From: Lytechinus pictus | Taxonomy: Eukaryota | DNA: 64,000 nucleotides | NCBI RefSeq assembly: GCF_037042905.1 | Contig: NC_087251.1 | Location: 42,534,001 to 42,598,000 of the forward strand | Direction: 5' to 3' | Shown: piece by piece, positions 10,021 through 47,938 of the stretch | Position numbering within the stretch: the stretch's first letter is position 1 | Layout: each line of letters begins with the position of its first letter | Translations under genes and position numbers: made by a program | The notes under the pieces: generated by a model | What the model was told of the DNA's origin: nothing | Databases searched by the model: none | Seen by the model: only the letters and a program-made list of their open reading frames with translations

Positions 10021-10591
10021 CTATTATGAACAAGAAATGGAAAGTGTAATTTGCAAAAAGGCTATACTACGACATCGAACTTATCCGAATGAAAAAGAAT
10101 GTATTGAAAAGCCGCTGATTATTTTAATGATTTCTTAAAAGCTGTAAATATGATTGTAATCAATAATAATTATCGAATTATCGGCCAGTTAGTTTGACAT
10201 GTATTGTCTGTAAGGTACTTGAATCTTTGATAAGAAAAGTTTTCATGGAACATTTCTATAGAAATGCACTCCTTTCTCCTCATCAACATGGATTTGTTGT
10301 GGGTAAGTCATGGACCACACATTTGTTGGAAGTCATTGATGAATGGACTCGAGTATTAGATGATGGCGGCACATTATTGATGCCATCTACATGGATTTTA
10401 TGAAGGCTTTTGATACTGTGCCACACCAAAGATTACTGACAAAGCTAGAGGCATATGGTATTCGAGGACATGTCCATGGGTGGATCAAGGTCTTTTTTCT
10501 TGGGCGAAGGGTCAGGAGTCGAACTGGTGTGAAGTCTCAAGTGGTATTCCTCAGGGTAATGTGCTCGGTCCCTGTCTGTTCTTGGCATACA

Positions 10592-11169
10592 TTGAAGGAC
10601 AAGCTCACCCCAACAAAAAGTTGATTTGAATAAAAAGAGGAACATCCAACAAGCATAACACTGAAAATTTCATAATTTCGCTTAATTTCACAAAACAGCA
10701 CATGCAGGTCGGTATGCAAATGAGGAGACTGATGACGTCATCCACTCACTATTTCATTTGTATCTTATTATATGAAATAAGAAATATTCTAATTTTCTCC
10801 ACATCGACAAGTGAAACAGAGAATATATGATCCCTCTCTGAACGTGTTGAATTATTATTGTTTAATATTATATGGTTTAGTCAAGTTGGTCCTTATTGTC
10901 AAATCTGTAAAAAATGAAATATGGTATAATTCAAACAATAAAAAAACACAAAAGAAATAGTGAGTGAGGGACATCATCAACTGTCCCATTTGCATGTCAC
11001 TGAGTTGTGTATATCACTGTTTTGCGAATAATAAGCGAAAGTTTAAAATGTCATAACTTTCTTATTTTACATCCGATTTTCTCCCCCTGAAAATTTTCAG
11101 CGTTATGCTCGTTTGATTTTTCTCGATTTATTCAAATCAACATTTTTCTGGGGTGGACTTGACCTTTAA
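10592..11169. mobile_element. TTAA-targeting (Kolobok-like) non-autonomous element inside the CR1
   Basis: TTGA|AGGACAAGCTCACCCC ... GGGGTGGACTTGACCT|TTAA; splits the RT between the PQG and ADD motifs. Confidence 0.75.
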
Positions 11170-11950
11170 TGATCTTCCCAATACAATGCAATCAAATATC
11201 AAGCTTTTTGCGGATGATACAAAGCTTTATGCCCGCTCGGATCTACCTGCAGGTCTTGTCAGCAACTTCAGAATGACCTGTCACTGTTAGAAAGCTGAGC
11301 TGAGAAATGGCAACTTCGCTTCCACCCAGACAAGTGTACTATTTTGAAAGTTGGTCGTATGCAGTCTGCATTTGAATATCACATAGGTAAAGAAGATGAC
11401 TCTGAACTTCTTAGTGACAGTCAGGTAGAGAGGGACTTGGGTGTACTACTTGATGCACGACTCGATCACCTTCAAAGACCACATCTCACAAGCTGTCTCT
11501 AAATCAAATAAATTGCTGGGTTTAATGAGGAGGTCTTTTGTAAATTTGGATGAAGATACAGTGAAGCTTATGTGTAAAGGTCTAATACGTCCCGCGTTAT
11601 TATGGCCGTTCAGTTTGGTCACCTTTTACAATAGGTGATCAGAAACGGCTAGAGAGTGTACAGCGAAGAGCAACCAAGCTAATACCTCGACTGAGGAACT
11701 TGTCCTATTCAGAGCGACTGCAACACTTAATTGAAACTACCATCTCTTCTACATAGACGTAGAAGAGGAGATATGATAGATGTGTAAGTATAGGCATTAT
11801 GGTATCTATGACTAGCATAGATCTGCTGGTACGAAGTAAGGAAGGGAGGACTAGAAGCCATTCCCAGAAACTTGAGAAGCAGTATGCAAGGCTTGCATGA
11901 TGTAAGGAAGTTCTTCTTTAATTTCAAATCGAGTTATAAGTTCTTGGAGC

Positions 11951-13662
11951 CACTGGTGTAAATCCGTGTTGATGGCTGGGGGGGATGACTGAAATATTTT
12001 GGCTTTTTTTTTGCAATCATGTTTTTAGATATGCAAGGAATTGTCATTGATATGTCCACAGTGGCGTACCGTGGGTCACGGCATTGGGGAGGGGGCACCA
12101 GCAAAATGTTTGAATCACTGAGTGAGCGCGCTCAGTTGCCAGTTATACTGACCTAATAGAGACACTTTCTGGACAATGTCATTAAACGGATATGCATCTC
12201 ACTGATCAAATAATGCGAGCGCGAAGCGCGAGCTGATTTTTTTTTATATTCACACCTAAAAAGAGACATTATAATCAAATTTGTGTAATCATGATAGGTA
12301 CCTGTCTCGCTAAACAATACGAGCGCGAAGCGCGAGCTGAAGTTTTCGTATATTTTTACCCCAAACAGCGAGATTTTGAGGAATATATTTTAGGAATCCA
12401 TTAAGAGTATGCATATCTCACCATAGTCATCTAATGCGAGTGCCAAGCGCTTGCTGGTTTATAAAAATTACATCTGAACACATGAAACACTTTTTGTAGT
12501 CATTGCAATGATTATCATACGCATCTCATTAATCAAATATTGCGAGCGCGAAGCGCGAGCTGAAAATTTAGACAATTCAGACCTGAAGTGGGGCATTCTA
12601 AGGTTTCTTTGTAGGAATTAACTAGGACCATACGTATTTCAATATCCAAATGATGCGAGCGCGAAGCGCGAGCTGAAAATTTTTGATATTCAGATCAGAA
12701 GAAGGGACATTTTAAGGACTGATTATAGGAATTCATGAAGAGCAGACATATCTCACCAATCCACTTATGCAAACGTAATCAAGGACAGGAAATGTTTCAT
12801 ATATACGAAGACCTTAACATGGGGCAATCACTTTTTGAGTCATGAAAAAGAAACATATGTCACTACATAAAACAATGATAACTCAAGTGCTAGGAAATGT
12901 ATTTGGTTTATATTGACTTGAAAACGGGATGTTTCAGTACAACAAGATTATATATATCGTTAACAGACAATGCAAGCACCAGGAACAATGAAGACGTAGG
13001 CCCTGGGCAAATTATGTTTCATGAAGTTATGATAAAAATATATCTTATGTAATGTAACATAACATAATTATAATATAACATTATAATGAATAATATTTTC
13101 TTCTTTCCCACTATACGCTTCTCTTCCTATCTCCCTCTTTTCTCCTTTTCCCCTTTTTCCCGGTTTTTTTTTTGGTCAGCCGATGGGGGGGGGGCATGTG
13201 CCCCCATCCCCCCCCCCCCCGTAGTCACGCCACTGTATGTACATATGGCAAATACCCCTCCAAAATTATTATCTTTTTTACCCCATGATTGTTTAATGGT
13301 TTTATTAGAGATTACATTAAAAAAGAATTTACATTCCATCTTAGTCCCTTCCCAAAGACCCCAACATTGATGAATTGGAAGAAACGGGAGTTTCTCTTCA
13401 ATGTTATAATAAGGACATAAGTATTTCGTTTGGAAATGGTGAACTGGCTCTTTATTTGCATTTTATGATTCAATAATATTGTTTTGTTTTTTAAGCGGTA
13501 TTTCAGGAAGAATTTTCACCAATAAAACAATTATCTCTTGTGATTTTTTTTCATTTCTTTCGTAAAAAGTGGGGGGGGGGCTGTTTGTACAGGCCATCCC
13601 CCCCTCCTCGAAAAGTGGGGGGGGGATATATCCCCCCATCCCCCCCGGGATTTACGCCAGTG
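11951..13662. mobile_element. hAT-like non-autonomous element
   Basis: TIR CACTGGTGTAAATCC / GGATTTACGCCAGTG; perfect 8-bp TSD CTTGGAGC (11943-11950, 13663-13670). Confidence 0.85.
12059..13235. mobile_element. hAT-like element nested in 11951-13662, with ~110-bp degenerate units containing GCGAGCGCGAAGCGCGAGC
   Basis: TIR CAGTGGCGT / ACGCCACTG; TSD TATGTCCA / TATGTACA (7/8). Confidence 0.8.
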
Positions 13663-17499: not shown

Positions 17500-18660
17500 A
17501 GGGTACTCCAGGCTGAAAATAATGTGATTCGAACAGATAAAGAAAAAACAGACAAACAAAACACTGAAACCCTTATCAAAATCGGACAAGGAATAACAAA
17601 GTTATAAAAATATTTGCAGTGAGAAATCTGATGATGTCATATCCCCATTGTTCTTTTGTATTTTATTACATTATATTGTGTTTCTTTTCTTCAAATTTTG
17701 TCCTCCAATAATTAAAAAAATTGATTGACCATAGATTTATTGCATTAGATATTTATTACTGCAAGTCTGCAACTCATTATTATATAAGGGAGATTATCAA
17801 ACACACATGTATAAAATGTGAAATAGTTATGATTTCATGTAATATTTAAAGGTCAAGTCCATCCCATAAAAATGCTGGTTTGTATTGATAAAGAAAAATC
17901 ATAAAACCTAGCATTAAAAACTTTCATCCAAATTGCATGTGAAATAAGAAATTTTCACAAAACAATTATATGCACCACTTAGTGCTATGCAAATAATAGA
18001 GTCAATGATGTCCCTCACTCACTGTTTCTTTTGTTTTTACTGTTTAAATTATACAATATTTCATTTTTTTACAGATTTGGCAGTAATGGCCAACTTGACT
18101 GAACCACAAAATGTTTAAATAATTGTATTCCACGTTTCATGGAGGAATAGGATTGAAATATATTTCGTATTTTGTATTATAAAATACAAAAGAAATACTA
18201 TAGTGATCGAGTGCGGGAGTGAGTGATGTCATCACTTCCCTAATTTGCATACCGTCCAGGGTGTGCATATAACTGTTTTGTGAAATTAAGCGAAACTTAA
18301 AATGGCACAACTTTCTTATTTCACATCCCGGCGATTTAGATAAAATGTTCAGTGTTTGTGGTTGTTGCATATTTCCCTTTATTTATTCAAATTAAAATTT
18401 TGTTGGGGTAGACTTGTCCTTTGAGAAAAAGAAAAGTGGAGACATGATCGACATGCATCAGCCCACATACATGACATAATAAATATTCACGACGACGTGC
18501 ATATAATTGTTTTCACAAAATAGTGCTGAACTTTAAAATTCAATAACTTGTCAGATTATCCGATTATTATGAAATTTTAAGCATTTTTGCATTGTGATTT
18601 TTTTCTCTACTTATTTAGATATATACTGTATGTAATTATTTTTAAGCCCGGATTACACCT
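17500..18660. mobile_element. TTAA-type (Kolobok-like) element with a related element nested at 17850-18420
   Basis: Outer TTAA|AGGGTACTCCAGGCT ... AGCCCGGATTACACCT|TTCA; inner TTAA|AGGTCAAGTCCATCCC ... GGGGTAGACTTGTCCT|TTGA. Confidence 0.7.
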
Positions 18661-20020: not shown

Positions 20021-20623
20021 ATTAATGTTCCGATGTCCACCCCTGAAAGCGTTGATTTGAATCGATATAGAAAAAAGAAAACAGCTAGCATAAGCGCTAA
20101 AAATTTCATCAAAGTCGGATGTAAAATACGAAAGTTGTGACATTTCGAAGTTTCGAGTATTTTTCACCAAAAAATTATATGCACACTCAGTGACATGCAA
20201 ATGAGACAGTCGATGATGTCCCTCAGGCTCACTATTTCTTTGATTTTTATTGCTTGAATTATACAATATTTAATTTTTTACAGATTTGACAAGAAGGACC
20301 AAATTGACAGAGACATAAATTATAGAACCTTGCTAATTCTACATGTTCAGGGAGTTGTTTCACTTGACAATGAGGAAAAAATTAGAATATTTCAGAATAC
20401 AAAAGAAATAGTGAGTGGATGACGTCACCAGTCTCCTCATTTGCATACTGAACAAGATGTGCATATAACTGTTTTTTTTTATCAAGCGAAACTTTAGAAT
20501 GTCATAACTTTCGTATTTTACTTCCGATTTTGATGAAATTTTCAGTGTTATGCTTGTTGCATTTATTTATCTCTTTTTCTTTAAATCAACTTTTTGTTGG
20601 GGTGGACTTGTCTTGTTCTTTAA
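20021..20623. mobile_element. TTAA-type (Kolobok-like) element, degenerate
   Basis: Body similar to 10592-11169 and 56892-57500; ends GTCCACCCC / GGGGTGGACTTGTC. Confidence 0.65.
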
Positions 20624-22036
20624 CCCCGTCATTCCAACAAATCCAATTTGTTTTAACTTTTTTTGAAACTGTTAAAACCTTTTAAACAACTTGTTTAAAA
20701 ATTTTAAACAATATTTGTTAGATTGACGGGCTAAACAACGTACTTAAAATTTTAAACAGCGTTTTTTACAGTGTGGAAAAGACACAGAAGTGTATGACCG
20801 TTTTGTCGGCCGTATATTGCTGCCCTCTACGTTGGTTGGTTGCAAGATGCCTGCAATGCACAACAAATCAATGACAAGTTTCAAAGAAAACGCGGGAGGA
20901 GGAAGTTCCCTAATTCATCTTTGCTAAACTCTACATTAACCTTCTTCAGGATCAGGTTTGTTAATTAATCGTATTCAAAGAAAAGTAGGGAATCTAATCG
21001 ATGCCGATTGTATACATTTTAACAATTTTTATTACTTTCCATGACCATGATGATGACAGATTCTTGATTGGAAAATTCGACATCGACTCTGCGCGAGTCA
21101 GCTCGGTCCCAGACGTACACTTTCAAGTTAGTTGCCCATGCTGTCTGTAGTGGTTTCTCGAGACTTGAGTTGAGTTGAATGAAATGAAACCACCCTCCTC
21201 CTCATCTGAGTCCAAGGATTCCTAGCTCCTGGCCAGGGGCAGGGCCAGTGTCATGGTCAAGTTGGCCTTGTTCATGGTTATTCTACTTTTTCATGGTTAA
21301 AAGGCTACAGTAATAATATTGACTTGTGCATCACTACTGCATGCATGTTGCCAGGAAAAAATCATTTAGATTTACTAACGAGTAACGTATGCTTACTCTC
21401 GGCCACGGAGCTAGGGGCGCTAGTGTAGTTTCGCACCTCCCCGTTTAATCTCACCCTAAATAATTCACAACCTAAAATACTTGCATCTGATCCTCCAAAG
21501 TCCAGTAGAAGTTGAATATTTGCCGTTTTGACACTTTTTTTTACAAAGTTTTACACCTATTTCGGAATCACTCGGTCGCTTGAAGCTCAGCGCTGCACAT
21601 AAGCAGTCGGTACGCGTACAGTACGTACCACCTAGTGAAGTGCAAGAAGAGCGAGTTTTTCTATGGTATCTTCAAAAAGATTTTTCCCCCTCTTTCAGCT
21701 TGCACCAAGTATTACGGTAGTGGTTGTGCAGAGTGGTTGATGTTTGTTGTGTGAAGGTGTGTGTGGGGTGTGCGTGTGTGTGCTTGTTTGAATGAAATAA
21801 GAAATGTGAAAAATGTGAATACACGTAGATTTAGCGATGAAATAAGAAATAATAATGTAGAGCCTTGTTTTGAACTCTAGGTCAGAGAACTTTCCTTCAG
21901 TTTACAATTGTATGCTATGTTGATTTCATGCTAGTAGATTACATTTTTCAATTTTTCACATGCCGTACCATCTCCATCCATACCACCTGGGACATGCAAT
22001 GTACATTTCATCCTTTTGTTTGCATGCGCATACACT

Positions 22037-24584
22037 CATGGGCGGAAATCCCAGGGGGGGGGGGGGACAGGGGGGACGTGTCTCCCCTACTCAAAATAGT
22101 AGAGGGGACACAATATAAAATGTCCCCCTACTATTTTTGGTCTTTTATGATGGTAAGAAATACATCATTATAAATCGAAATAAAACATGTATTTTGGGAC
22201 GAGATGACCTTACTTTGGCGATGATAACCTTTTTTTTTGCTTGTCAAATTTTGGTTTTTAAAAAGTGCTCTGTAAAAATGTCAGTTTTATGGTCTGAACT
22301 TGCGCTGCGCTCGCAAATTTTGATTTATCAGGTACCTATTATTTTCGTGTATTCCATAAAGTTTTCAAAATATCCCTTTTCAGGTCTGATTGCCAAGACG
22401 TATCAGCTAGCGGGCTGCACGCTCGCATTTCGATTGGCGAGTTATATAAATGTTTCAATATAGATTATACAACAAACTACTTAAAATCCCCTTTTCATGA
22501 CAGTTTATAAAAAATTTTAGCTCGCGATTTGCGCTCGCATTAATGGTTAAAAATATATTAACTGATGCATCCTATTCATAATCACAAAAGTGAAATGTCC
22601 AGTTTTTATGCCATTATATCATCAGATTTCGCGCGCTCGCATTTTTTGATCGTTGAAATATGTAACGCCTTCATGGTAAGTGCAAGCAATCCTTAACAGG
22701 TACCTTTTCAACAGGTACCAGTTCAAAACGTATATAAAAATTGTGAACATGTCCAAAAAAATTCAGATCGCGCTTCGCGCTCGCATTATTAATACTCACC
22801 CTTTTCAGGATATACAAAACATGAATAGAGTGTCTCGTTCAGTAAATATTATAGGACTAAATCTCGAAATTTTCCGCTCGCGCTACGCGCTCGCATTAAT
22901 TGATTACTTATATACCTATTCTGCTTGAGTTACAAAAAGTGCTTAGAATTTCCATTCTTTAGGTGAACAAGTCCAAAAAAAATCAGCTCGCGCTTTGCGC
23001 TCGCATTATTTGATTGTTAAATGCTACTTTAACAGGTATCTTTTCCATCAGTTCATTTCTGCTCGCGCTTTGCGTTTGTAGTAATTATTAAGTTGCATAC
23101 ACATCTTTTTAGGATAACAAACATTGCCCAGAATCAGTTCAAATTTTAGGAAAAAAATACATAACATTTCAAAAAAAAATTAGCTCGCGGTTCGCGCTCG
23201 CATCATATAAATAAGGATTATGATATTATATATTTATTTATAAGAATAAAGCTAAGAAGTGACTAATGAGGACTACCCCTTCAAAGAAACAAACAAAAAT
23301 CATCTTCGAGCTGCCAATCGGGGAAAATATGGCTGAAACAAATTACCGCCCCCCCCCCCCTATTGGCGAAGGCTGGATCCGCCCCTGTGTCCCCCCTACC
23401 TTTTGGGAGAGATTTCCGCCCCTGAAGGTGGATATGGATCGAACTTTAAAAAAGAGCTAAAATTTTCATTATTATTACTTTGAGTTTTGACATAGGACCG
23501 GGACATCCTTACGACATGTCATGAAAATGATGACTATCTTCCTATTCCTCTTGCTAAGCGCGAGATGAAACAAAAGTGACAATTTAATTATTAAATTAAT
23601 ATCATATTTATTAATGCCTAATGAGAACGCGAAATCTGATGATATTATGGCATAAAAACTGGACATTTCACCTTTGTAATCATGAATAGGATGCATCAGT
23701 TAATATATTTTTAACCATTAATGCGAGCGCAAATCACGAGCTAGAATTTTTTATAAACTGTCATGAAAAGGGGATTTTAAGTAGTTTGTTGTATAATCTA
23801 TATTGAAACATTTATATAACTCGCCAATCGAAATGCGAGCGTGCAGCCAGCTAGCTGATACGTCTTGGCAATCAGACCTGAAAAGGGATATTTTGAAAAC
23901 TTTATGGAATACACGAAAATAATAGGTACCTGATAAATCAAAATTTGCGAGCACGCAGCGCAAGCAGCAAATGTTGATAAAATTATTCAGACCATATAAC
24001 TGACATTTTTACAGAGCACTTTTTAAAAATAAATTTGTAAATCACACAAAATAATGAAAGTTCGATTTCCGAGGTGAAATATGTTTTGTATATTGACTCC
24101 CAAACCTGATATTTGAGCTCCATATTGAACAAGATATGTAAATCACCTAACAGGCAATGCGAGCGCGAAGCGCGAGCGAAAATTTTATATAGTGGCACGA
24201 AAGATTCTTTTTATTTTCCAAGTCTTCCCCTCATCTTATTTTATGCATTCGTCGTCCTTCTCTTCCTTTTCTCCTCTCTTTTCCCTCCTTTTTTCCTTTT
24301 TTCTTTCCCTTTTTTTCTTGTTTTGCTCCGCCAATAGGGGGGGGGGGGGGCCTCGGCCCCCCTGGATCCGCCTATGGGGACAAGGGGCGGGAAAATTTGA
24401 CAAGCAAAAAAAAAGGTTATCATCCCCACAGTACGGTCATCTCGTCTAAACTCGTCCCAAAATACATGTTTTATTTCGATTTAGAATGATGTATTTCTTA
24501 CCATCATAAAAGACAAAAAATAGTAGGGGGGACATTTGATATTGTGTCCCCCCCCCCCTTTCCCCCTTGGGATTTCCGCCCATG
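22037..24584. mobile_element. composite hAT-like non-autonomous element inserted in the left Merlin TIR
   Basis: TIR CATGGGCGGAAATCCC / GGGATTTCCGCCCATG; perfect TSD CATACACT (22029-22036, 24585-24592); uninterrupted site visible in the right TIR at 30384-30391. Confidence 0.9.
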
Positions 24585-25316
24585 CATACACTCACTACAT
24601 GCAGGGAGGTGGTCATATACGTGTATGTCATTACTCTCAGTCTCGCACACTAACTGCACCTGATATCCATTTAGGTTTACCCTTCGTATAACTTTGATGA
24701 TTTCTGATTGGTTCCTTATACTCATCCATGCTTATGTTCATCTATGATTGGTTGATTATATACAAATGAATATTTATGTTTGTGCAGTCGGATGGAAAAA
24801 CAATAAAAAGTGGCAGAGAGTGCCAAGGCCCTGGGAACAATTTTTTTTCACCGGGGTGCTGAGATTAATATACATGTATATGAAGGGCGGATCCAGGATT
24901 TGTGAAGGGGGGGGGGGGTGGCGGAGACCAGCTTCCCTACCTGTTGAGAAACGTGGGCATGAATCAGTACTTGAGCGTAAAGATGTCACAAACAGCCGCT
25001 CAAGAGCTGATGAGCGGGTGGGGGGGGGGGGCGTGGTAAGCATTAAAAAAAAATTTTAACCGTCAGTTCGTAATGTTTTCTGCAAAAGTGACCAATTAGA
25101 AATTCTGTGGGGGAGGGCAGGGTGGGAAAACAATTTTTTAAAAATTGGTAATGATTTTTTTTAAAGGGGGTCCAGCGGGTTTTTAAGGTCTAAAAAGGGA
25201 CTTGGGCGCAGCCGCGGCCGATTCGGCCCCCCTCTTAACAGCCTGAACTCCTCAAATCAGCCTGAAAGGGGGAGGGGGCGAATCGCGGCCGATTCGCCCC
25301 CCCCCCCGATCCGCCC

Positions 25317-25319
<3 letters not shown>

Positions 25320-25394
<75 letters not shown>
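25320..25394. repeat. (TA)n microsatellite
   Basis: Read directly; only about 5 units at the homologous site in the right TIR (~29643). Confidence 0.95.
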
Positions 25395-25396
<2 letters not shown>

Positions 25397-25689
25397 CAAC
25401 GCATTTTGCAGGGGGTTGCTGTGCATCCCCTGAAAAATCTGCAGCACCCCCATCACCCCCGCTTCCCAGGGCCCTGGAGAGAGTCATATGCTCAGAGAGG
25501 GAGAGAGAGAGAGGCCACATAGCCGTTGCAACCTGAGCTAGAGAGTTGTTGGACTAATTTTTATTCGTCTCCAAAGTATAACACCTATGTAGTGAACCCA
25601 AAACGCATAAACCATCAAAGTAATCCTTTACAATAATTAAAAAACACACGAAAACAAAATGTTTATTAGGGCCTTTGGTATATTAAAAA

Positions 25690-26180
25690 AATAAAGAGAA
25701 AGAAATAGAGGAGAGAGGGGGCGGAGAGAGAGAGGCGGGAGAGAGAGAGAAGTGACAAAGAGAGGAAAAAAGACAGGGAAAGAATAAGGAGAAAGGACGG
25801 GGGAAAGAGTAAAAAAATGTAAATACAAAGATGGCACTAAAGAGAGAAAAAAATAAAACAATAGATTTACAAAATAGAAAATAGCCTTAAAAGGAAAGAA
25901 CGAAAAGATATATAGATAGAAAAAGAAGAAAGATAAATTTGACAAGGGAAGAGAAAAAAGATAAAAAGATAAAATGGAAAGGAAGAAAGAATAGAGAGAG
26001 AGTGATTAGAAAGAAAGAAAAAGAAAGAAAAATAAGGAAAAAGAAGAGAGGGGTTTATTAAAATAGAAAGAAAGAAAAGATGGATAGGAAGGAAAGAAAG
26101 AGAAAGAAAAGATGGATAGGAAGGAAAGAAAGAGAAAGATAGATAGGAAAGAAAGAAAGATACTTAAAAAGAAAGGGAAG
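25690..26180. repeat. purine-rich (A/G) low-complexity tract inside Merlin
   Basis: Read directly. Confidence 0.8.
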
Positions 26181-26974
26181 TTATATGCTTCTGTATGTGT
26201 GGATGTAAAGGTGTGTTTGTGTATGTGCGACATCATCATCCCCCCCCCCCCCCAGGTCTGAGGACGTGTCTACGCCACTGCAATCATTCTGTCTTCTAAA
26301 CATACACTTTCGAAATTCACATTTCAATCGTAGCCGCTAATACATTTACACTCACAAAACAAACACATTCATCAGTGATCAGCACACATCTACAAATATT
26401 GCAAATCAAACGTTTAAATGAAATAATGACTGCAAACAAAAGACAAAATAACACAAAATATATTTGTCTCATTGATTTTAGAAAATATATATTATTGATG
26501 AACCTTCATGGAAGGAATATATAAACTTTGAGCAACAATATGCTGGAAGGAATTATACAGATGGTTCTAATAGAAGAAAAAAAATATAGATCATGTCATG
26601 AAGAAAACAATATGTAACTTTAAGACGTATACTGTAACATAAACATAGGTTTTTAAAAAATGATACGTAACTAATTACATTGAGCAAACTTTAACCGAAA
26701 ACATGTTGTAATGCCCGACCCTTAAAAATGATACATGAAATTATGTCTACAACTCGTGTCCTTTCTGAAGCTGATATCAAAATTAAAACTGATCAAGTAC
26801 TTCGCAGAATGAACTGCGGATCACCTAATAACAATGTCAATAATTATTGTCATAATGATACTAAAAAAGTAATAACAAAATATTGGTATTTGGAAAATCA
26901 TAACTGGCAATATCAATAATAGTAAAAAATAAAATAAAAATGATTAAATAGGAAGACGAGCATGTAAGATAAAG

Positions 26975-27940
26975 TTAATTGACGGGGTACAAGTCTGTGG
27001 CAATCTGTGTCCACAAATGAAAGAGTGGACTTGCCGAAAAGCGCTGTGACCACATGAACTCACAAAGGTAGTCGCCTATCATGGCTCTGTTGGTTGGACC
27101 TTGTTGTGCCTTGAACTTCGCCTTCGCTCTCTGCCACATTGACTCGACTCTGTTGGTAGTCACACCGGTGTTCGGATCAACGAAGTTGAGTGTGTGGTTT
27201 ACCACCCCGTGTTGGTATTGTCCCGGCAAGTTTGGTAGGTTGTTGTATGCTCTCCACATATCGGTCCAGATAATGCTGCCGGGTGCCACCCATTGTTGGA
27301 TGATGGGCAGCAGGGTAGCCGCGTCCCGCTGCTGGACTTCGACCAGAAAGCCTATCTTGCGGGCAGGTTCGTAGCCACCGAGGACCCACTTTTCTGGTCG
27401 GGCGCGTCCTACGTTGTTTTTCCTTCTCGCAAAAAGAGACTCATCAATCTCAACTAGGACACCCGGACCCCCGATCTGCTGCTGGTGGTTTTGGAAGTAC
27501 TGGACGCAGATGTCGCGAAAAAACTGCATCCAGTCCACCGTCGTTTTGTTCGAGACTCCAACTTCCTTCATGATGATGTCCTGAGGCAGCCCTCGAGCAC
27601 GACCGCAGTTGGTTGACCATACGTAGGAAAGGGCAACTATCTGCCAGAGTTGAAGATGGCTCCTTTCAAAGAAGCTGTCCTTTCTGATGTTCACCGTCTT
27701 CCGACAGGGATTTGCGCAACGCCATGTGATGCCATCAACGGCCCTGTTATATGCCCCTTCCCGACATGGACGACCGCAGGTAGGACAGTCCATATGTGTT
27801 GCAAGAAGTCCATGGTTTCGGCACCAGAGAACCATGCCGTCGATGTCATATTTGAATCTATGACCAATCTCGGTCAGACTGATTCCCTCAAACTCTGCCT
27901 GGTCAGGCAAATTGCCGCCCTGAGGCTGAGCAGCAGCCAT
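26975..27940 (-). CDS. Merlin transposase (ISXO2/IS1595-like DDE), 321 aa, intronless
   Basis: N-terminal Cys zinc ribbon (CPTC...WRC..C), HTH-like region, catalytic VEIDES, IWTDMWRAY, NH..NFVDP.TG..TNRVESMW; uninterrupted frame. Confidence 0.93.
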   Translation of the reverse strand: MAAAQPQGGNLPDQAEFEGISLTEIGHRFKYDIDGMVLWCRNHGLLATHMDCPTCGRPCREGAYNRAVDGITWRCANPCRKTVNIRKDSFFERSHLQLWQIVALSYVWSTNCGRARGLPQDIIMKEVGVSNKTTVDWMQFFRDICVQYFQNHQQQIGGPGVLVEIDESLFARRKNNVGRARPEKWVLGGYEPARKIGFLVEVQQRDAATLLPIIQQWVAPGSIIWTDMWRAYNNLPNLPGQYQHGVVNHTLNFVDPNTGVTTNRVESMWQRAKAKFKAQQGPTNRAMIGDYLCEFMWSQRFSASPLFHLWTQIATDLYPVN

Positions 27941-28053
27941 GATAAAAATTCAACTCGAGTTTTGACGCCAAAGATGTTTGGTCAACGACTGATCTGACAC
28001 TGGGTTTTCTCGAGGGTTTTTATTTGGAAGTGGGGGGGGGGGGGGTCATTTTT

Positions 28054-28524
28054 ATCATTCATCTTTGGAGTTTCTCTGATGATAACATTTTTGCCGCAAT
28101 CAAAAGGTATCCCGCTTCATTCTCACGCCCCTGGGGGCCACTCTATATACAACGCTGTAACCACGCGCGTGCACAAATACGCGGAATAAGTGGCATTTTT
28201 TCGGGCAGGATCATTCATCTTTGGAGTTTCTCTGATGATAACATTTTTGCCGCAATCAAAAGGTATCCCGCTTCATTCTCACGCTCCTGGGGGCCACTCT
28301 ATATACAACGCTGTAACCACGCGCGTGCACAAATACGCGGAATAAGTGGCATTTTTTCGGGCAGGATCATTCATCTTTGGAGTTTCTCTGATGATAACAT
28401 TTTTGCCGCAATCAAAAGGTATCCCGCTTCATTCTCACGCCCCTGGGGGCCACTCTATATACAACGCTGTAACCACGCGCGTGCACAAATACGCGGAATA
28501 AGTGGCATTTTTTCGGGCAGGATC
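28054..28524. repeat. three near-identical 156-bp tandem units upstream of the transposase
   Basis: Units start at 28054, 28210, 28366; one substitution noticed (CCC/CTC) in unit 2. Confidence 0.95.
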
Positions 28525-29539
28525 CCTTTAAGGGTATCAAAATCGCTCATTTAAGAGAAAAGGGTTTTTCAGAGCAAATTCCGCGCTAAGGGTTATCTTT
28601 TCCCTATCTGAAGCAAAATAAAAATGTTCCTATATAATTGATAATTAAAAGTGATTTTCACTCCTTTTTCACTGACTTACAATTTATATACGGTCGCATC
28701 ATATATATCTATATTTTTTACAACAATGCAAATTCTTCTATAGTTCTATCATGCAAAGTTTTTAGGTACTATGTAGAAACAATTTTACCGTGCACAAGGT
28801 TGGGGGGGGGGGGGGTGAGGGCGAAGATAGTAGCTTTATCGGTGGGAGCAAAGCATTTTTTTCCTTCTTAGCTTCAGTGGGTCCTTTCCAAAGATATAAA
28901 AAGTAATATAGGCACTAGAATGTAATAATGTTGTACTATAACGATCTGTAAAGAGCTGTGCCCAAAATGCAAACTTTCTATATACCAAAATGTAAAATGT
29001 CTCACTCGGTCTCTACGCTACCTCACATAGTAATATAATATTATGAAGTGCCCCTTTTGGACCCCCTCACAAGTAGAATACCAAAGTAAAATGTATAAAA
29101 ATTGAAGGAAATAATGTGCTTTCACGACAGGGGGAGGGGAATTAGGGGCATGGTTTCCAGGTTATCTGCAGGGAGTAAGGGTCGATACATATCGGAGCTA
29201 CATTTTGGGGATTCTTTGAGATGACCCACCCCCACCCCCATGCGCGTATCCAGTATTTTATACCCCTGGGGGCCCGACCAGATTTTGGGCGCCCTTAGGT
29301 AAAATTTGGAAAATGCCGCCCCCCCCCCCCCACATGCATGATCAAAGTAAACTATATCTCGACACATTTTGTTCAAATTATAAAAAGATTTAACCCTAAA
29401 AAGGCAGAGTGATGTTTGTTTGGTTTTTATTTTCGGGGGGGGGGGGTGTTCTCAGACATGGAGCGACAAACTGTTCTGAAACTTGGCATGTAGTGTACAT
29501 AGAACATTATATATTAAATAAACCTATAAGGTCAAACGT

Positions 29540-31004
29540 CTCTCTGAGCACATGACTCTCTCCAGGGCCCTTGGAAGCGGGGGTGATAGGGGTGCTGCAG
29601 ATTTTTCAGGGGATGCACAGCAACCCCCTGCAAAATGTGTTGTATATATATACAGGGGCGGATCCAGGGGGGGGGGGCGATTCGGCCGCGCCCCCTCCCC
29701 CTTTCAGGATGATTTGAGGAGTTCAGGCTGTTTAGAGGGGGCCGAATCGGCCGCGGCTGCGCCCAAGTCCCTTTTTTAGACCTTAAAAACCCGCTGGACC
29801 CCCCTTAAAAAAAAATCATTACTAATTTAAAAAAAATTGTTTTCCCACCCTGCCCTCCCCTACTGACAGAATTTCTAATTGGTCACTTTTGCAGAAAACA
29901 TTACGAAATGACGGTTAAAAATTATTTTTTTTATGCTTACCACCCCCCCCCCCCCACCCGCTCATCAGCTCTTGAGCGGCTGGTTGCGACCTCTTTACGC
30001 TCAAGTACTGATTCATGCCCACGTTTCTCAACAGGTAGGGAAGCTGGTCTCCGCCACCTCCCCCCCCTTCACAAATCCTGGATCCGCCCTTGATATACAT
30101 GTATATTAATCTCAGCACCCCGGTGAAAAAAAAATTGTTCCCAGGGCCTTGGCACTCTCTGCCACTTTTTATTGTTTTTCCATCCGACTGCACAAACATA
30201 AATATTCATTTGTATATAATCAACCAATCATAGATGAACATAAGCATGGATGAGTATAAGGAACCAATCAGAAATCATCAAAGTTATACGAAGGGTAAAC
30301 CTAAACGGATATCAGGTGCAGTTAGTGTGCGAGACTGAGAGTAATGACATACACGTAATATGATCACCTCCCTGCATGTAGTGAGTGTATGCGCATGCAA
30401 ACAAAAGGATGAAATGTACATTGCATGTCCCAGGTGGTATGGATGGAGATGGTACGGCATGTGAAAAATTGAAAAATGTAATCTACTAGCATGAAATCAA
30501 CATAGCATACAATTGTAAACTGAAGGAAAGTTCTCTGACCTAGAGTTCAAAACAAGGCTCTACATTATTATTTCTTATTTCATCGCTAAATCTACGTGTA
30601 TTCACATTTTTCACATTTCTTATTTCATTCAAACAAGCACACACACGCACACCCCACACACACCTTCACACAACAAACATCAACCACTCTGCACAACCAC
30701 TACCGTAATACTTGGTGCAAGCTGAAAGAGGGGGAAAAATCTTTTTGAAGATACCATAGAAAAACTCGCTCTTCTTGCACTTCACTAGGTGGTACGTACT
30801 GTACGCGTACCGACTGCTTATGTGCAGCGCTGAGCTTCAAGCGACCGAGTGATTCCGAAATAGGTGTAAAACTTTGTAAAAAAAAGTGTCAAAACGGCAA
30901 ATATTCAACTTCTACTGGACTTTGGAGGATCAGATGCAAGTATTTTAGGTTGTGAATTATTTAGGGTGAGATTAAACGGGGAGGTGCGAAACTACACTAG
31001 CGCC
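29540..31004 (-). repeat. right TIR of Merlin (1465 bp)
   Basis: Reverse complement of the left TIR segments. Confidence 0.9.
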
Positions 31005-31012
31005 GAGCTAGG

Positions 31013-31900
31013 CCCTAGGGATTCCTTCCCATTCATCTGCGTGTACCACCAAAAAACCTGAAACTTTCACCCCCGAGATTTCTACTTTCCTTTTAGTTTT
31101 AAAAGATCAAGAGTTCCGGCGCAGTGTGCGGCCGCTTAAGTTAACAATGCTTAGGTTAGGGTTTTTCCATCCTGTAACTAGTGTAACTATTTTGCACAAA
31201 TTTAATCCATACCATAGACCTACATATCATATAAAAAGGACTGATGGTACTTACTATTTTTATCGCAAAAATTGGCCGATAGCAATCGTGTGACGGTGGT
31301 GGTCAAGATTGACCACCACTTCTGACCGCGATAGCATTCTTCTGTGTGCGGCCACCCTGTCTCTAGTGCGGTTTCCGATGTACAATTCCTATGGCGCTCC
31401 CGCAAGCTCTGTGAGGCAGCTGCAATTCACCTCTAAACGGCGCGCGAATGTTGCTGAGTGCGCAGTTCCATTGCAAACGCATGTGAAAATAGCGAGCATA
31501 CACACAAAGCCGCACTTAGTTAGGCCTTAGGGCGCTACATTTTGAGGTGTTGTCGTATTTTTCATGTTTTTTATTATTTTTTCGATCTCAGCATTGACTT
31601 CCGGAAAGAAATGGCGGCCGACATCGGCTCGCGAAAGTACTAGTTTTTACCGAGGGGCGAGGACATGTTTTCAAAATCCACGAACATCGAGAAAACCGTG
31701 AAAAATCCACTTTTTTATACCCCTTGTTTCTTAACTATGAACCGACGGTGATATTTTTTTATGCGAGATATGGTGATTTACTTAAGGAAATTTCACTTTT
31801 TATTTGAGATTTTGCCCATGTCGCCGGATGATTTTGTAGTGTGGGAGTGAGTTAGTGAATATGTACTGTACATGTTTAGAGTGTGTTGGTGATTTCAGTG
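31013..31900. promoter_or_regulatory. CpG-rich candidate (bidirectional) promoter upstream of BANF1
   Basis: Raised CpG density; ETS-type TTCCGG at 31114 and TTCCGGAA at 31599; YY1-type AAATGGCGGC at 31609; candidate donor GTGAGT at 31847. Confidence 0.45.
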
Positions 31901-32479
31901 GAATATTGTTGAGTCTGCTGAATGGCCGCACACCAACCCCCTGCCGCGCACAGATGCAGTTACTCTAGCCCTTAATCATGTAGATGGGATACAACTTCAT
32001 TTCGGACATTTCTACAATATCAATTTCATTTTTAAACAAGAATTCATTCAAAAAACGAGAAAAATGTTATGCTTGAAAACTTGCCACCGTGTTAACGTCA
32101 CCATCTTGATTTCATTGTCTTTCGCTTGGCGACAGCATGCAAATTGCGCGATTTGCGTGCTGTCACCACTCGCCAAGCGAAAGACAAGGTCTACTCAAAG
32201 GTCATTTCATCATCATGATGATCCTCATCTGGTACGGGATGAAGGCGCGAGCCTGTAACTCCCGGTCGCTTCTTGTACTATTTGTAGGATTAATATTGCT
32301 GAAAATTACTACTTCATGAGCTTGTGTGAGGAGTCATGGAAGCTCAAAGTGCTTATTTTGCCAAAATATATCAATACGGTACTTCTTTTAAATTTGTCTG
32401 TTGTTGGCATTTGTATTAACTTAAGTATTTAGGGTCAATGAACTTAGACCATGTTGGGGGAATCAATATCAAAATCAAT

Positions 32480-32803
32480 ATTCCACCAACTGGACCATGT
32501 ACACGTGGAAATCCTGATAAGTTCCAAATCCCATATGCCAGAACACAAATATATCAAAAGACATTCTTTCCTGATGCTATCAGAATATGGAACTCGCTCC
32601 CAGCAAAGATAGTCCACAGCACCTCCCTCGCGTCTTTCAAGCAGGAGGTGCAGCAAATGAGGCTTCGTTAAGGCCTCTTCTGTTTTTAGCCGCACATAGT
32701 TTTGTAGAGATTTTTACTTGCACTATTCATCTGGGCACTTGACAAGCACAACTAGTACGATAATATGCCAATGGCAGTCTGTACTTGACAAGAAGAAGAA
32801 GAA
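32480..32803 (+). mobile_element. 3' fragment of CR1/L2-group LINE with (AAG)n tail
   Basis: TRG..KFQIPYART..YQKTFFPDAIRIWNSLP...SLASFK; AAG repeats at 32789-32803. Confidence 0.7.
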
Positions 32804-36398: not shown

Positions 36399-36988
36399 GG
36401 GGAAACATCGGGCTGAAGTTATCTATATCTAAATAAATAGAGTAAAATTCACAGAGCAAAATGCTGAAAATTTCATCAAAATCGGATAACAAATATCGAA
36501 GTTATTGAAATTTAAAATTCAGCAATATTTTGTAAAAACAGTTATAAGTACGTCATCATGATCATTAGGTGGGCTGATGTCACATCCCCACTTTCCTTTT
36601 TCTTATGTTATTACATAAAATCATAATTGTTTCATTTTTTCATACATGTGTAAATAATGTGTCTCCATTATATTGCAGCAATAAATAACTAATGCACTTA
36701 ATCAGTTGTCAATCCAATTGTTTTAGTTCGTGGTAGAAAAATTTTGAATGAACCTAATTTCATATAATAAAATACAAAAGAACAAGTGGGGATATCACAT
36801 GATCAGTTTGCTCATTGAATATTCATGGAGACATGCCTAGAACCGTTTCACCGGAATAATGCAAATTTTAAAATTCAATAACTTTGTTATTTGTTATCTG
36901 ATTTGGATCAAATTTTCAGCGTTTTGCTCAGTGAATTTTACTCTGTTTATTGAGATATGAATATCTCCAGCCTGGAGCATCCCTTTAA
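36399..36988. mobile_element. TTAA-type (Kolobok-like) element, second subfamily
   Basis: Direct homologue of 39210-39811; right end CCAGCCTGGAGCATCCCT|TTAA. Confidence 0.7.
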
Positions 36989-38339: not shown

Positions 38340-39209
38340 AATGCATTTTAGAATTTAAATTTGTTTCATCTATTGTCGACTTGTTATTCTTGTATATCTT
38401 TTTTGTGTGAAGTTACTGTTCTGAAGTGTCTCCCTGACAAAATTGAGAATTACATGTAGTTAAAAGAATTATGAATCATCTTCATATGAATGTTTTATGT
38501 CAGTTTTGCACTTTCTACTCTGATAAATGAAGCAACTTGTTGACTAGTGACACAGAGAGGACACTGCTTTCTTGGCCACCCCCCCCCCCGGGGTAATAGG
38601 GGAAGAAAGGGAAGGGAAAGGAAGGCGCAATAAAGGGGGGGGGGGGGGCAAGAGAAGGGGAAAAGAGTGAAAGAAGGGAAGAAATATGAAAGAAACGAAA
38701 AAGAGTGAGGGGGGATAATAAGATAGGGGCAGTGTAATCTTAATCTTAAAAAATCTGTTTTTTTTTTTTTGGGGGGGGGGCATAATTGTCTTAAACTTGA
38801 GGAGGCTTGCTAAATCATTGACCCGAAAATGAGGGGGCGCCAAATTGACCCAAAATAATGATGGGACCCAAAATAATTGTTAGTAAAGGGGGCACCAATT
38901 CCATTTTAAACTCGGGGCGCCATAATGGTAATGAAACTAAGGGGGTGCCGAATTTATCTTGAACTTTGTGGTCCCCAAATTGAGCCGAAAATAATAAACG
39001 CCAAATTCAAGCTTTCATCAAGGATGAAGATGGTGGTGACAATGATGAAGATGAATGCCATAGAGATAGTGATGGTGATGATGTTCATGGTGGAGTATTT
39101 GGTGATGATTAAATCAAAGGAAGAGTGATTTAATGATAAACTGAAATTCTGACACAGAAAATTTACTTCAAATATTCTGATGATAACATGGATTTAACGT
39201 TTGCCTTAA

Positions 39210-39811
39210 AGGGAGTGTCCGGGCTAAAAATATTTATATCTTAATAAAACGAGTAAAATTCAAAAAGCAAATTGCTGAAAATTTCATCAAAATCGGATAA
39301 CAAATAAAGAAGTTATTGAATTCTAAAGTTTATAAATATTCTGTGAAAACAGTTATATGCATATCGTCATTAATATTCATTTGGTGGGCTGATGATGTCA
39401 CATCCCCACTTTCTTTTTTTATGTTATTACATGAAATCATAAATGTTTCACTTTTCATACATGTGTAAATGATGTGTCACTGTTATGATGAAATAAGTTG
39501 TGGCAATAAATAACTAATGCACTTAATCAGTTGTCAATCCAATTGTTTTAGTTCTTGGTTCACAAATTTTTAATACACCTAATTTCATAGAAATTAGAAA
39601 AGAACAAGTGGGGATATGACATTATCAGCCTACCTAATGAATATTGATAAAGACATGCCTAGAAAATAATGTTTCACCGGAATAATGTAAATCTTTAAAA
39701 TTCAATAACTTTGTTATTTATTATCCGATTTTCTCCAAATTTTCAGCAGTTTGCTTTGTGAATTTTACTATATTTATTGAGATAGTAATATCTCCAGCCT
39801 GGACCATCCCT
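39210..39811. mobile_element. TTAA-type (Kolobok-like) element
   Basis: TTAA|AGGGAGTGTCCGGGCT ... AGCCTGGACCATCCCT|TTAA. Confidence 0.8.
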
Positions 39812-40479
39812 TTAAATTAATAAAGAGAAAACCATCATTATAGACTCTGGTAGAGAGGTAAAAAAATCGGGACCGTGGTGTCTTATGGATTTATGTGCAA
39901 TAAGCAATTTGGGATCGATTGAATGAAAATTTGAAGAGTTACGTGTAGGGTGAAGAAGCATGTTATTTACCTGAACATCAGCAGTAAGCTTTGAAGGGAA
40001 TTTTATGCCAAATACTGTTAGAGTTTAGTGTCTTTAGTTTCGTATGGAAAAATTGGTTTTGTAAGTGATAGATATTGCGAATTAGTACAAATTCTAATGG
40101 TTTTTCCCCTTAATAAGTATGTTGTATTAATTTTAGTTTTTGCACAGGTTGCCCAAACTACATTGCACTATGATATATAAGGTAATGTTAATAAATTGTA
40201 CAGCGTGACGAGGGTAGTATTATGTGGAATAATGTTTTTCATTTTGTAAAGTACACCGACGTTTCTTGAAATACTACATTTCGAAGTTATACAACGTATG
40301 TGTTCGTTCCAATTTAGATTGTCATCTATTGTAGCACTTAATTTTGTATCTTTTTTTTCTTTTTAAAGGTATATTGTCTGTGCTTATATTGTAAGGAAAT
40401 TCAGTAATATGTGAATTTGTATGTTCAACATACATAAAGTTTGTTTTATATATATTAAGTGAAAGCTTATTACACTTAA

Positions 40480-45022: not shown

Positions 45023-47938
45023 ATAATGGGCTTTCAGTTTGGCTATAGAGCAATCAAAAGTGTAAAAACATCATTCAGATTCGCCATAGTGCACTCAAGT
45101 TAACACCGGAGGTCACGTGACTGAAGACAGAGCGTTCAATTTCGCTATTAGGTATCCATGTTCATAACTAGTGCATTCAATTTAGCACTGTATTTACATG
45201 ACTTGTAATACATATTCAAACATTCTTCGCTTGTTTTTCCCAACCTGCAGTATGTGTGCCACCAGTGACCATTCATAAAACCGCACTGGACAATTTACAT
45301 TATTCTTTACAGATGCTTGTAAAAAATCATGTAAATTACATAAAAGCAGTGGCCTGCTTATTTAGGAAGTTATGTACCATCTGCAATTACGATATCATAG
45401 TATATACATTTAGTTTTTTTTTTTAAAGAATATAAAAGGTTCAAAAAGAATTATATAAAGGAAGAAAACCGTAGTCAATGTCTTTAAAATTTGATGAAAA
45501 GATTATTGTTTAAAATGATTAAAGGCATATGAAAACAGATACAAAATTAAAAAACAAAACAATAAAAGTATGTTATGAAAGAAGAAAATCATGATATTGT
45601 ATACAAGCTAAAGTAATCAATGGCTGAAAAAAAATGACTGATTTTTGTGCTTTGAACTTTAACATGTAAATTTCATACCAAAGATCTGTAAAATATAACT
45701 AATCTGCAATTACGATAGCATATTAAGTATACACATTTAGTTATTATGTTTTTTTTAAGAATATAAAAGGTTAAAAAAGAATTGTGTAAGGGAAGAAAAC
45801 CGTAGTCAATGTCTTAAGTTTTGATGAAAAGATTATTGTTTCAAACGATTAAAGTCATATGAAAACAGATGCAAGATGAAAAGAACATTAAACGTAAATA
45901 TGAAAGAAGAAAATCATGATACTGTATAGGTCTACATGCTATGATTATGTCTCTAGTCAATGCATATATCAAAGAGATGGTGCAAATATACATTAAGAAC
46001 CAAAAAAAAATACAAAGATAAAAAAGACATATGAATTAACACAGGGAAATGTCAGGAAATTTTCCCTCTGATAATTTATAGGCCTTTAGCCATCCGATAT
46101 TTATATTTTTTTGGTGACTAAATATGGATATAGTAAGCCCATAAAATGGAAGAAAATTTAAACATGAGAAAGTTATAAAACAAATGGAAAAAAATACGTG
46201 TGCTAAATTGCATGCACAAATTGTATAATTGGATGCAAAATGGCGAAATCAAATACTCTAACAAAGCTCGAGGGGGTTTCACGGCGAACTTGGTTGCACT
46301 GTGTACAAATTGGACGGGAAAACCTATAATATAGGTTTTCCCGTCCAATTTCACACTTAGTGCAAGATAGGTCATTCAATTTTGCACATTGTGCATGACA
46401 AAGTATAAATAGGTCATTCAATTCATTAGATAGGGCAGCCAAAATCACCAGTCGGCATTCAAATTCGCTATAGTGCAACCAAAATGGCCAATTGGTATTC
46501 ATAATTGCTTTAGAGCAACCAAATCCGCCACTCGGCATACGAATTTGTACATAGCGCAACCAAGTTCGCCCGTGAAACCCCCTCGAGCTATGTTAGAGCA
46601 TTCAATTTCGCCATTGTGCATCCAATTATATAATTTGTGCATGCAATTTAGCACACATAATTTTTTTTATTTGTTTTATAACTTTCTCATGTTTATCTTT
46701 TCTTCCATTTTATGGGCTTACTATGTCCATATTAAGTCATCAAAAAAAAATATCGGATGGCTAAAGGCATATAAATTAACAGAGGGAAAATTTCATGACA
46801 TTTTCCTGTGTTAATTCATAAGTCTTTTTTATCTTTGTAATTGTTTGTTCTTAATGTATATTTTCTTGCCATTTGCACCATCTCTTCGATATAAGCATTG
46901 ACTAGAGACATAATCATATCATGTATACAATAATCGTGATTTTCTTCTTTCATATTTACGTTTAATGTTCTTTTTATCTTGCATCTGTTTTCATATGACT
47001 TTAATCATTTAAAACAAAAATCTTTTCATCAAAACCTAAAACATTGACAACGGTTTTCTTCCCTTATATAATTCTTTTTTAACCTTTTATATTCTTTAAA
47101 AAACATAATAACTAAATGTATAAACTTAATATGATATCGTAATTGCAGATGATTATATTTTACAGATCTTTGGTATGAAATTTACATGTTAAAGTTCAAA
47201 GCAAAAAACTTGGTCTTTTTTCAGCGATTGATTACTTTAGCATGTGTACAATATCATGATTTTCTTCTTTCATAACATACTTTTGTTTTTATTAATCATG
47301 TATCTGTTTTCATATGCCTTTAATCATTTAAAACAATAATCTTTTCATCAAAACTTAAGACATTGACTACGGTTTTCTTCCCTTTAATTCTTTTTGAAAC
47401 TTTTATATTCTTTAAAAAATGATAACTAAAATGATAAACTTAATATGATATCGTAATTGCAGATGGTATATAAATTCCTAAATAAGCAGGCCACTGCTTT
47501 TATGTAATTTGATTTTTACAAGCATCTGTAAAGAGTAATGTAAATTGTCCAGTGCGGTTTTATGAATGGTCACTGGTGTCATACATATTGCAGGTTGGGA
47601 AAAACAAGCGAAGAATGTGTGAATATGTATTACAAGTCATGTAAATACAGTGCTAAATTGAATGCACTAGTTATGAACATGGATACCCAATAGCGAAATT
47701 GAACGCTCTGTCTTCAGTCACGTGATCTCCGGTGTAAATTTGAGTGCACTATGGCGAATCTGGATGATGTTTTTACACTTTTGATTGCTCTACAGCCAAA
47801 CTGAATGCCCATTATGAATTTTTAGCTGCCCTATGGCGATTTTGAATGACTAGTTTGAATTTTTGGTTGCTCTTTAGCGAAATTGAATGAACTATTTATA
47901 ACCTTGCATGCACTAAGTGCGAAATTGAGTGGGAAACC
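45023..47938. mobile_element. two copies of one ~1.6-kb TIR element arranged head-to-head (giant palindrome)
   Basis: 45023-46311 is the reverse complement of 46542-47815; copy B 46334-47938 has ends GGTTTTCCC / GGGAAACC flanked by TATA; copy A ends at 46324. Confidence 0.85.

Follow-up and report, generated by a model that had tools for sequence, protein, structure and literature searches.

Structure and coding capacity of the element

The stretch analysed here, in the following referred to as the window, comprises 64,000 nucleotides of the Lytechinus pictus contig NC_087251.1 (positions 42,534,001 to 42,598,000 of the forward strand). It harbours a transposon of the Merlin superfamily with an intact transposase gene and long terminal inverted repeats (TIRs, hereafter also called arms), which spans positions 21416 to 31004, starts with GG and ends with CC. 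The best lead offered by this element is a gradient in the identity of its two arms that halts at a nested insertion. The coordinates of all features are compiled in Table 1.

The element is flanked by an exact direct repeat of 8 base pairs (bp), a match with a chance probability of about 4^-8, which represents its target-site duplication (TSD). The gross length of 9589 bp, minus 2556 bp for the nested insertion and one copy of the TSD of that insertion, leaves a net length of 7033 bp, of which the two arms occupy 41.7%. The transposase open reading frame (ORF) is read from the minus strand and encodes 321 amino acids (aa) with neither a stop nor a frameshift. An initial annotation of this DNA had listed a perfect 8-bp TSD, GG...CC termini, an uninterrupted transposase and TIRs of 1465 bp making up about 40% of an element of about 7.0 kb, and in all these respects it was borne out.

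The transposase matched PF12762 (DDE_Tnp_IS1595) with an E value of 2.8e-14 and 53.8 bits at a cut-off of 27, and the same domain was matched by 25 of 25 aligned sequences. D166, D227 and E266 were invariant in 16 of 16 aligned transposase sequences. The nearest named relative, at 84%, is from Diadema antillarum, followed by crinoids, a nemertean and cnidarians; the 90% protein cluster of the transposase has four member sequences, possibly all of one genome. A four-cysteine motif (27704-27787, residues 52 to 79) was invariant or nearly so in the 25 aligned sequences, and PF12760 (Zn_Tnp_IS1595) was matched by only one of the 25 relatives, weakly (E = 0.067). These results support membership of the Merlin superfamily with an intact transposase: of the defining Merlin features, the domain, the DDE residues, the TSD and the GG ends are present, and an arm length of 24-462 bp is not a defining feature. 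None of the seven other ORFs in the interior reached the Pfam cut-off, spliced or shorter genes lying outside that search.

A TATA-like word is located about 30 bases before an initiator-like word and about 50 bases upstream of the transposase ATG; judged by core-promoter consensus words, we take this to be a promoter candidate. Polyadenylation words are found at 26054, 25662 and 25560. Together with the candidate promoter, they would possibly confine the predicted transcript to the DNA between the arms. No RNA source was listed for this DNA, a result that has no bearing on its expression. Further upstream, the three tandem 156-bp units differ from each other by a single base. These units are open in one plus-strand frame over 202 aa, which lacks a methionine and gave no Pfam match at the cut-off.

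Table 1 Features of the Merlin element, its nested insertion and other repeats in the window.
Feature	Position	Strand	Remarks
Left 8-bp TSD	21408..21415		Same letters as 31005-31012
Left arm, outer part, 621 bp	21416..22036	+	Identical to right arm
Nested non-coding hAT-like element (presumed class)	22037..24584		CA...TG ends, own TSD
Left arm, inner part	24593..25499	+	About 3% substitutions versus right arm beyond offset 905
MITE-like module in left arm	24882..25319		Short inverted ends, no clean TSD
(TA)38 run	25320..25395		Expanded in left arm only
Merlin/IS1595-type transposase ORF, 321 aa	26975..27940	-	D166/D227/E266, N-terminal CxxC...CxxxC motif
Putative core promoter	27987..28025	-	TATA-like A-rich word and initiator-like word
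Three tandem 156-bp units	28054..28524		Upstream of transposase, outside arms
Right arm, uninterrupted, 1465 bp	29540..31004	-	Self-comparison and arm alignment
MITE-like module in right arm	29653..30092		Mirror of 24882-25319
Right 8-bp TSD	31005..31012		Within multi-copy host repeat
MITE-like family one	10590-11170, 17843-18422, 20035-20612, 56885-57504
MITE-like family two	36409-36988, 39206-39815
MITE stands for miniature inverted-repeat transposable element.

Graded identity of the two arms

In a self-comparison of the window, the element gave two inverted matches, 21416-22038 with 30382-31004 (100%) and 24584-25499 with 29540-30392 (about 95%). They correspond to a right arm of 1465 bp and, when the two parts of the left arm are joined across the nested insertion, to a left arm of 1528 bp, including its longer TA run. 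In the alignment of the arms, 1433 of 1453 columns matched (98.6%); the differences amount to 20 substitutions and 14 indel events. The identity is graded along the length of the arms: the outer 640 bp are identical, and all 34 differences lie further in. Offsets 1-621 contain no difference, offsets 622-905 two substitutions and two indels (0.7%), offsets 906-1351 14 substitutions and 11 indels (3.1%), and offsets 1352-1465 four substitutions and one indel (3.5%). Under a uniform spread, the probability that none of the 34 differences falls within the outer 621 bp is about 7e-9. The step from no difference in the outer 622 bp to four in the next 280 bp or so has a P value of about 0.009, the inner boundary having been picked after the data were seen. 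The first difference is located 20 bp inward of the nested insertion.

With regard to their composition, Tandem Repeats Finder detected no tandem array in the arms besides the TA run; they are thus not foldback arms in the strict sense, and of the initial description of the element as foldback-like only the overall shape remains. A 10-mer scan of the arms returned two short duplicated words. The inner arm contains no repeated binding motif and consists of debris of other repeats, including one MITE-like module of about 440 bp that occupies the same position in both arms, for which copying is an easier explanation than two insertions. The inner edge of the arm sits in a GA microhomology, i.e. 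a GA run common to both sides.

Since the arms look homogenised, their identity is no measure of the age of the insertion, and the element cannot be called young on this basis, as had been done initially; the 2.5-kb nested insertion, the roughly 3% substitutions in the inner arms and the related copies differing by 1-3% that are described below speak against a very recent origin. In general, the gradient cautions against dating DNA transposons from the identity of their arms.

Sequences related to the element in other sequencing runs

In order to compare the right part of the element with other material, positions 28530-32010 were matched at 88% likeness to four of the 12 listed sequencing runs, of which X1, X2 and X6 were compared as contigs and X10 as about 6% of its RNA reads. 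The results draw on 40 of its 129 rows of variants, 24 of its 230 loose ends and 24 of its 429 pieces.

At position 29572, the left-arm allele was found in X10 (six of six reads) and the right-arm allele in an X1 contig. According to depth arithmetic, this contig begins at about 29525-29528 and spans the right inner junction. In the same run, an arm piece at 30131-30562 lacks the nested element, and coverage over most of the inner arm is of low depth; the internal DNA of this run differs by 1-3% from that of the window and seems to carry two additional insertions. This assembly is therefore probably not alone in having the long right arm. Another X1 record (record 2) departs from the window sequence at 29525 and continues for 272 letters. 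Its interpretation as a copy without the right arm was dropped, since the contig with the right-arm allele at about 29525-29528 indicates that record 2 reflects an insertion in that copy.

There are also positions at which the two arms of the window agree with each other and differ from other runs. At 30454 and 30459, they differ from all three runs with coverage there, namely from the X1 and X6 contigs and, at 30459, from X10 (two of two reads). At 30929, 30 of 31 X10 reads have a letter other than theirs, although about half of the X2 depth has the letter of the window. One X6 contig (depth 2.2, 92% alike) tracks the internal DNA to 29539 and continues with 114 letters unlike the arm; as 29539 is the last base before the arm, the departure coincides exactly with the arm edge. 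A second X6 contig (depth 19.5) covers 30382-30973; it starts at the very base that marks the interruption of the left arm by the nested element, and the terminal 31 bp are absent from it. The ends of the MITE-like module recur in shorter relatives in X1 and X2, with joints from near 29677 to 30060-30073.

Depth over the outer 290 bp or so of the arm was 109-181 in X1, 174-504 in X2 and 14-22 in X10 (one strand), whereas over most of the inner arm it was 0-5 in all three runs, with the exception of the MITE ends. This contrast may reflect relatives with shorter ends or a single expressed copy, depth not being equivalent to copy number. None of the 24 of 230 loose ends listed revealed a second flank at the element terminus, and no contig among the listed pieces spanned the whole of 28530-32010.

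Beyond the right terminus, 26 X10 reads and four X2 contigs leave the right flank and enter sequence that, by eye, is similar to the left flank at about 21385-21412. As these host-repeat reads cross without the element, the element sits in a multi-copy repeat of which other copies are uninterrupted; the uninterrupted sequences are empty sites related to this one and do not represent an empty allele of the element's own locus. Depth over the host repeat at 31013-32010 was high in X1, X2 and X10. A stretch of about 31090-31964 is skipped by many records, which suggests a further insertion of about 870 bp or a longer form of the host repeat. At the other end of the compared region, X1 and X2 contigs extend to the left past 28530 by 891 and 1463 letters, respectively, without a break, and the copies in these runs may accordingly have fewer 156-bp units.

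Related transposases in metagenomes and viral contigs

A metagenome scan yielded 61 matched stretches in 21 related loci, 20 of which are shorter than 5 kb. Neither the terminal 16-mer (with up to three mismatches) nor any arm sequence was present in any of these 21 loci. One locus (L008, 43% identity) has inverted ends of 36 bp, and the other loci are uninformative with regard to arm length. In locus L005 (1-1159), a relative of the Merlin transposase (66%) lies inside a 474-bp inverted duplication of 97% identity, which reflects either a rearranged copy or an error of assembly. Among viral contigs, none of 25 stretches was confirmed as related.

The nested element and neighbouring repeats

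The element nested in the left arm, which we take to be hAT-like by the usual rules for the termini and TSDs of that group, is flanked by an exact 8-bp TSD (22029-22036 and 24585-24592), and none of the listed ORFs within it is transposase-like. It possesses inverted arms of its own of about 600 bp that are about 97% alike over the longest piece. Its right arm carries an insertion of about 300 bp, further nested pieces are present, and its interior contains many repeats of a short GC-rich word. A second long-armed element, at 45023-47815, has arms of 1.3 kb at 90% and an internal duplication of about 320 bp; no clean TSD was seen in its alignment. Including the nested element, long arms are thus common in this neighbourhood.

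Elsewhere in the window, there are MITE-like repeats of about 580 bp with inverted ends, which fall into two families and are 73-83% alike. Tandem arrays or duplications are located at 49611-50648, 52162-53751 and 56255-56883, with units of 158 bp, about 780 bp and 175 bp, respectively. A short ORF at 32420-32671 resembles the C-terminal end of the reverse transcriptase of a long interspersed nuclear element.

Origin of the long arms

We think it fairly probable that the element is an autonomous-type Merlin whose arms consist of a short TIR plus recruited internal DNA and were later homogenised from the ends. This model of recruitment and homogenisation is an analogy, taken from a proposal made for the Drosophila element Galileo. 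The insertion of the element, a DNA transposon of the cut-and-paste type, into another repeat generated the 8-bp TSD observed. By comparison with its family, the single DDE transposase is expected to bind the arms at their outermost parts and, after cutting at both ends, to reinsert the element. The original functional TIR would have been shorter than 1.46 kb, with the rest of the arm representing internal non-repetitive DNA that contains older MITE-like debris. The anatomy suggests that internal DNA beside one end may have been copied onto the other by inverted-repeat-templated repair ('recruitment'), the copying switch occurring at the GA microhomology. Later arm-to-arm copying may have proceeded inward from the ends and halted near the 2.5-kb nested insertion, which would account for the identity of the outer 640 bp next to an inner part that has diverged by about 3%. 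Transposition probably does not require most of the arm length, which would be a by-product of recombination. The long arms as such are real and probably also occur in other individuals.

In favour of this explanation are the TSD, the ends, the ORF and its DDE residues, the gradient of arm identity with its first difference close to the nested insertion, the MITE-like module in matching positions of both arms, the letters that the arms share at 30454 and 30459, the GA microhomology and the X6 contig departing there, the two arm alleles at 29572 and the host-repeat reads and contigs without the element. Several points weigh against it. The inner arm is richer in GC (52% versus 40%) and in base runs, and faster mutation there may account for part of the gradient; in addition, assembly polishing could have removed a few differences from the outer arms. 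The X1 contig over the right inner junction follows from bin arithmetic and does not appear among the listed pieces. The X6 contig that departs at the arm edge is of low depth, carries another organism label and may stem from a parent repeat instead of a Merlin copy. Finally, no second full copy was seen.

The state of the transposase gene provides a further line of evidence. By rough estimate, an ORF drifting for as long as the inner arms would have a probability of about 0.5 of acquiring no stop and of about 0.03 of acquiring no frameshift; this estimate is crude, as it assumes inner-arm rates and relies on a by-eye count of five non-run indels. Since such drift would probably have broken the ORF, its intact state is slight evidence for a long-armed form that remained mobile. 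A bolder version of the recruitment model, which we put forward tentatively and with considerable doubt, is a mobile echinoderm Merlin family in which all autonomous copies have non-repetitive arms of about 1.5 kb that are re-homogenised inward, with the nested insertion marking the point where copying stopped. If true, such a self-homogenising family would lend itself naturally to the measurement of conversion tracts between arms and to testing whether long TIRs suit an active IS1595-type transposase.

It is unlikely, in our view, that the 1.46-kb arms are simply the normal, inherited and required TIR of a mobile Merlin family, of which the window would contain a recent copy that later received the nested insertion. 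The intact 321-aa ORF, the four sequences in its 90% cluster, the low-depth cover of the inner arm in X1 and the contig over the right junction in that run are in line with such a family, and the drift estimate suggests mobility after the arms had formed. However, the high depth confined to the outer 290 bp or so in X1, X2 and X10 suggests shorter-ended relatives, as far as depth can stand for copies, the inner arm is made of debris of other repeats without a repeated binding motif, and no other flank at the terminus appeared among the loose ends listed.

A one-off local rearrangement, in which the right end of a short-TIR Merlin was once overwritten by left-end DNA of its own or of another copy, would account for the sharp inner breakpoint at the GA microhomology, where the X6 contig also leaves the window sequence. 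The sections of PMC3573991 consulted here offer a parallel in Galileo, whose longest recruited TIRs occur in single non-autonomous copies. Yet a single event predicts arms of one age, and substitutions in the arms rise in three zones from 0 through 0.7% to about 3%. Both arm alleles are present in other samples, and, by the rough estimate above, an intact ORF is not expected after comparable neutral drift; we thus judge such a rearrangement to be quite improbable. A false inverted duplication introduced by the assembly, which the perfect identity of the outer 640 bp and the lack of a listed contig across the whole compared stretch might suggest, is very unlikely in view of the 34 differences between the arms, the presence in just one arm of a nested element that has a TSD of its own, the exact TSD at both outer ends and the occurrence of left-type and right-type alleles in other runs.

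Comparison with known elements

Merlin elements are little studied, and the unbroken 321-aa transposase and the clean ends make the present element a candidate for an activity assay. The three-step gradient of identity ending at the nested insertion is a clear record, at a single locus, of how TIRs may grow and homogenise. Searches of the literature for long-TIR Merlins, sea-urchin Merlins, arm conversion and foldback elements, whose coverage excluded Repbase and most subscription papers, brought up no account of this family.

Foldback elements, represented by FB and Tetris of Drosophila and, in sea urchins, by the TU elements, likewise have long inverted arms that are able to fold back. The Merlin described here differs from them in that its arms lack an internal tandem-repeat domain and in that it has its own transposase. 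The consulted sections of PMC6431247 do not mention Merlin.

For the Merlin superfamily, the parts of PMC8101967 available to us give TIRs of 24-462 bp, GG ends and TSDs of 8-9 bp, and state that described Merlins lack Zn_Tnp_IS1595. Our element conforms to the superfamily with regard to its DDE_Tnp_IS1595 domain, its intact DDE residues, the single ORF, the GG ends, the 8-bp TSD and the internal tandem repeat, but differs in its arms of 1465 bp and in its conserved four-cysteine motif. The accessible portion of the S1 Table of PMC8101967 lists 70 Repbase Merlin families, none of them from an echinoderm, and gives a TIR size for 19, two of which are at 1000 bp (Merlin-1_DR and Merlin-N5_DR). 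For Merlin-2_DR, it records mirrored repeats at 64-112 with 13613-13661 and at 847-1832 with 12117-12880. Computed from these table coordinates and not from sequences, the arms measure at least 1.6 kb of 13.7 kb in Merlin-2_DR, whose DDE is listed as conserved, and at least 1.1 kb of 4.3 kb in Merlin-N5_DR. The arms had initially been called giant, which is justified in relation to the stated range of 24-462 bp but not in relation to these Repbase entries: the comparison with Repbase lengths that the initial annotation had proposed places them at the long end of the range and shows, within the portion of the table used, that kilobase arms are already on record. The three zebrafish families thus share kilobase arms with our element. 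In contrast to them, however, its arms are non-repetitive, partly MITE-like debris and graded in identity, whereas those of the zebrafish Merlins hold tandem arrays with units of 79 bp, 113 bp and 44/99 bp.

Galileo, a member of the P superfamily in Drosophila, has TIRs of up to about 1.26 kb that gained length by recruitment of internal DNA, and the sections of PMC3573991 consulted here propose arm-to-arm recombination and conversion and refer to long TIRs as a convergent trait. It resembles our element in its long TIRs and in their proposed lengthening by internal DNA, and it differs in the superfamily of its transposase and in that, according to the same sections, its longest TIRs belong to non-autonomous copies and no intact transposase was found; in our element, the long arms flank an intact ORF. 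Nothing established is overturned by these comparisons, as both kilobase Merlin arms and the recruitment of TIR sequence are already on record, and the element is a good example and not a new kind. What sets it apart are non-repetitive arms that are graded in identity.

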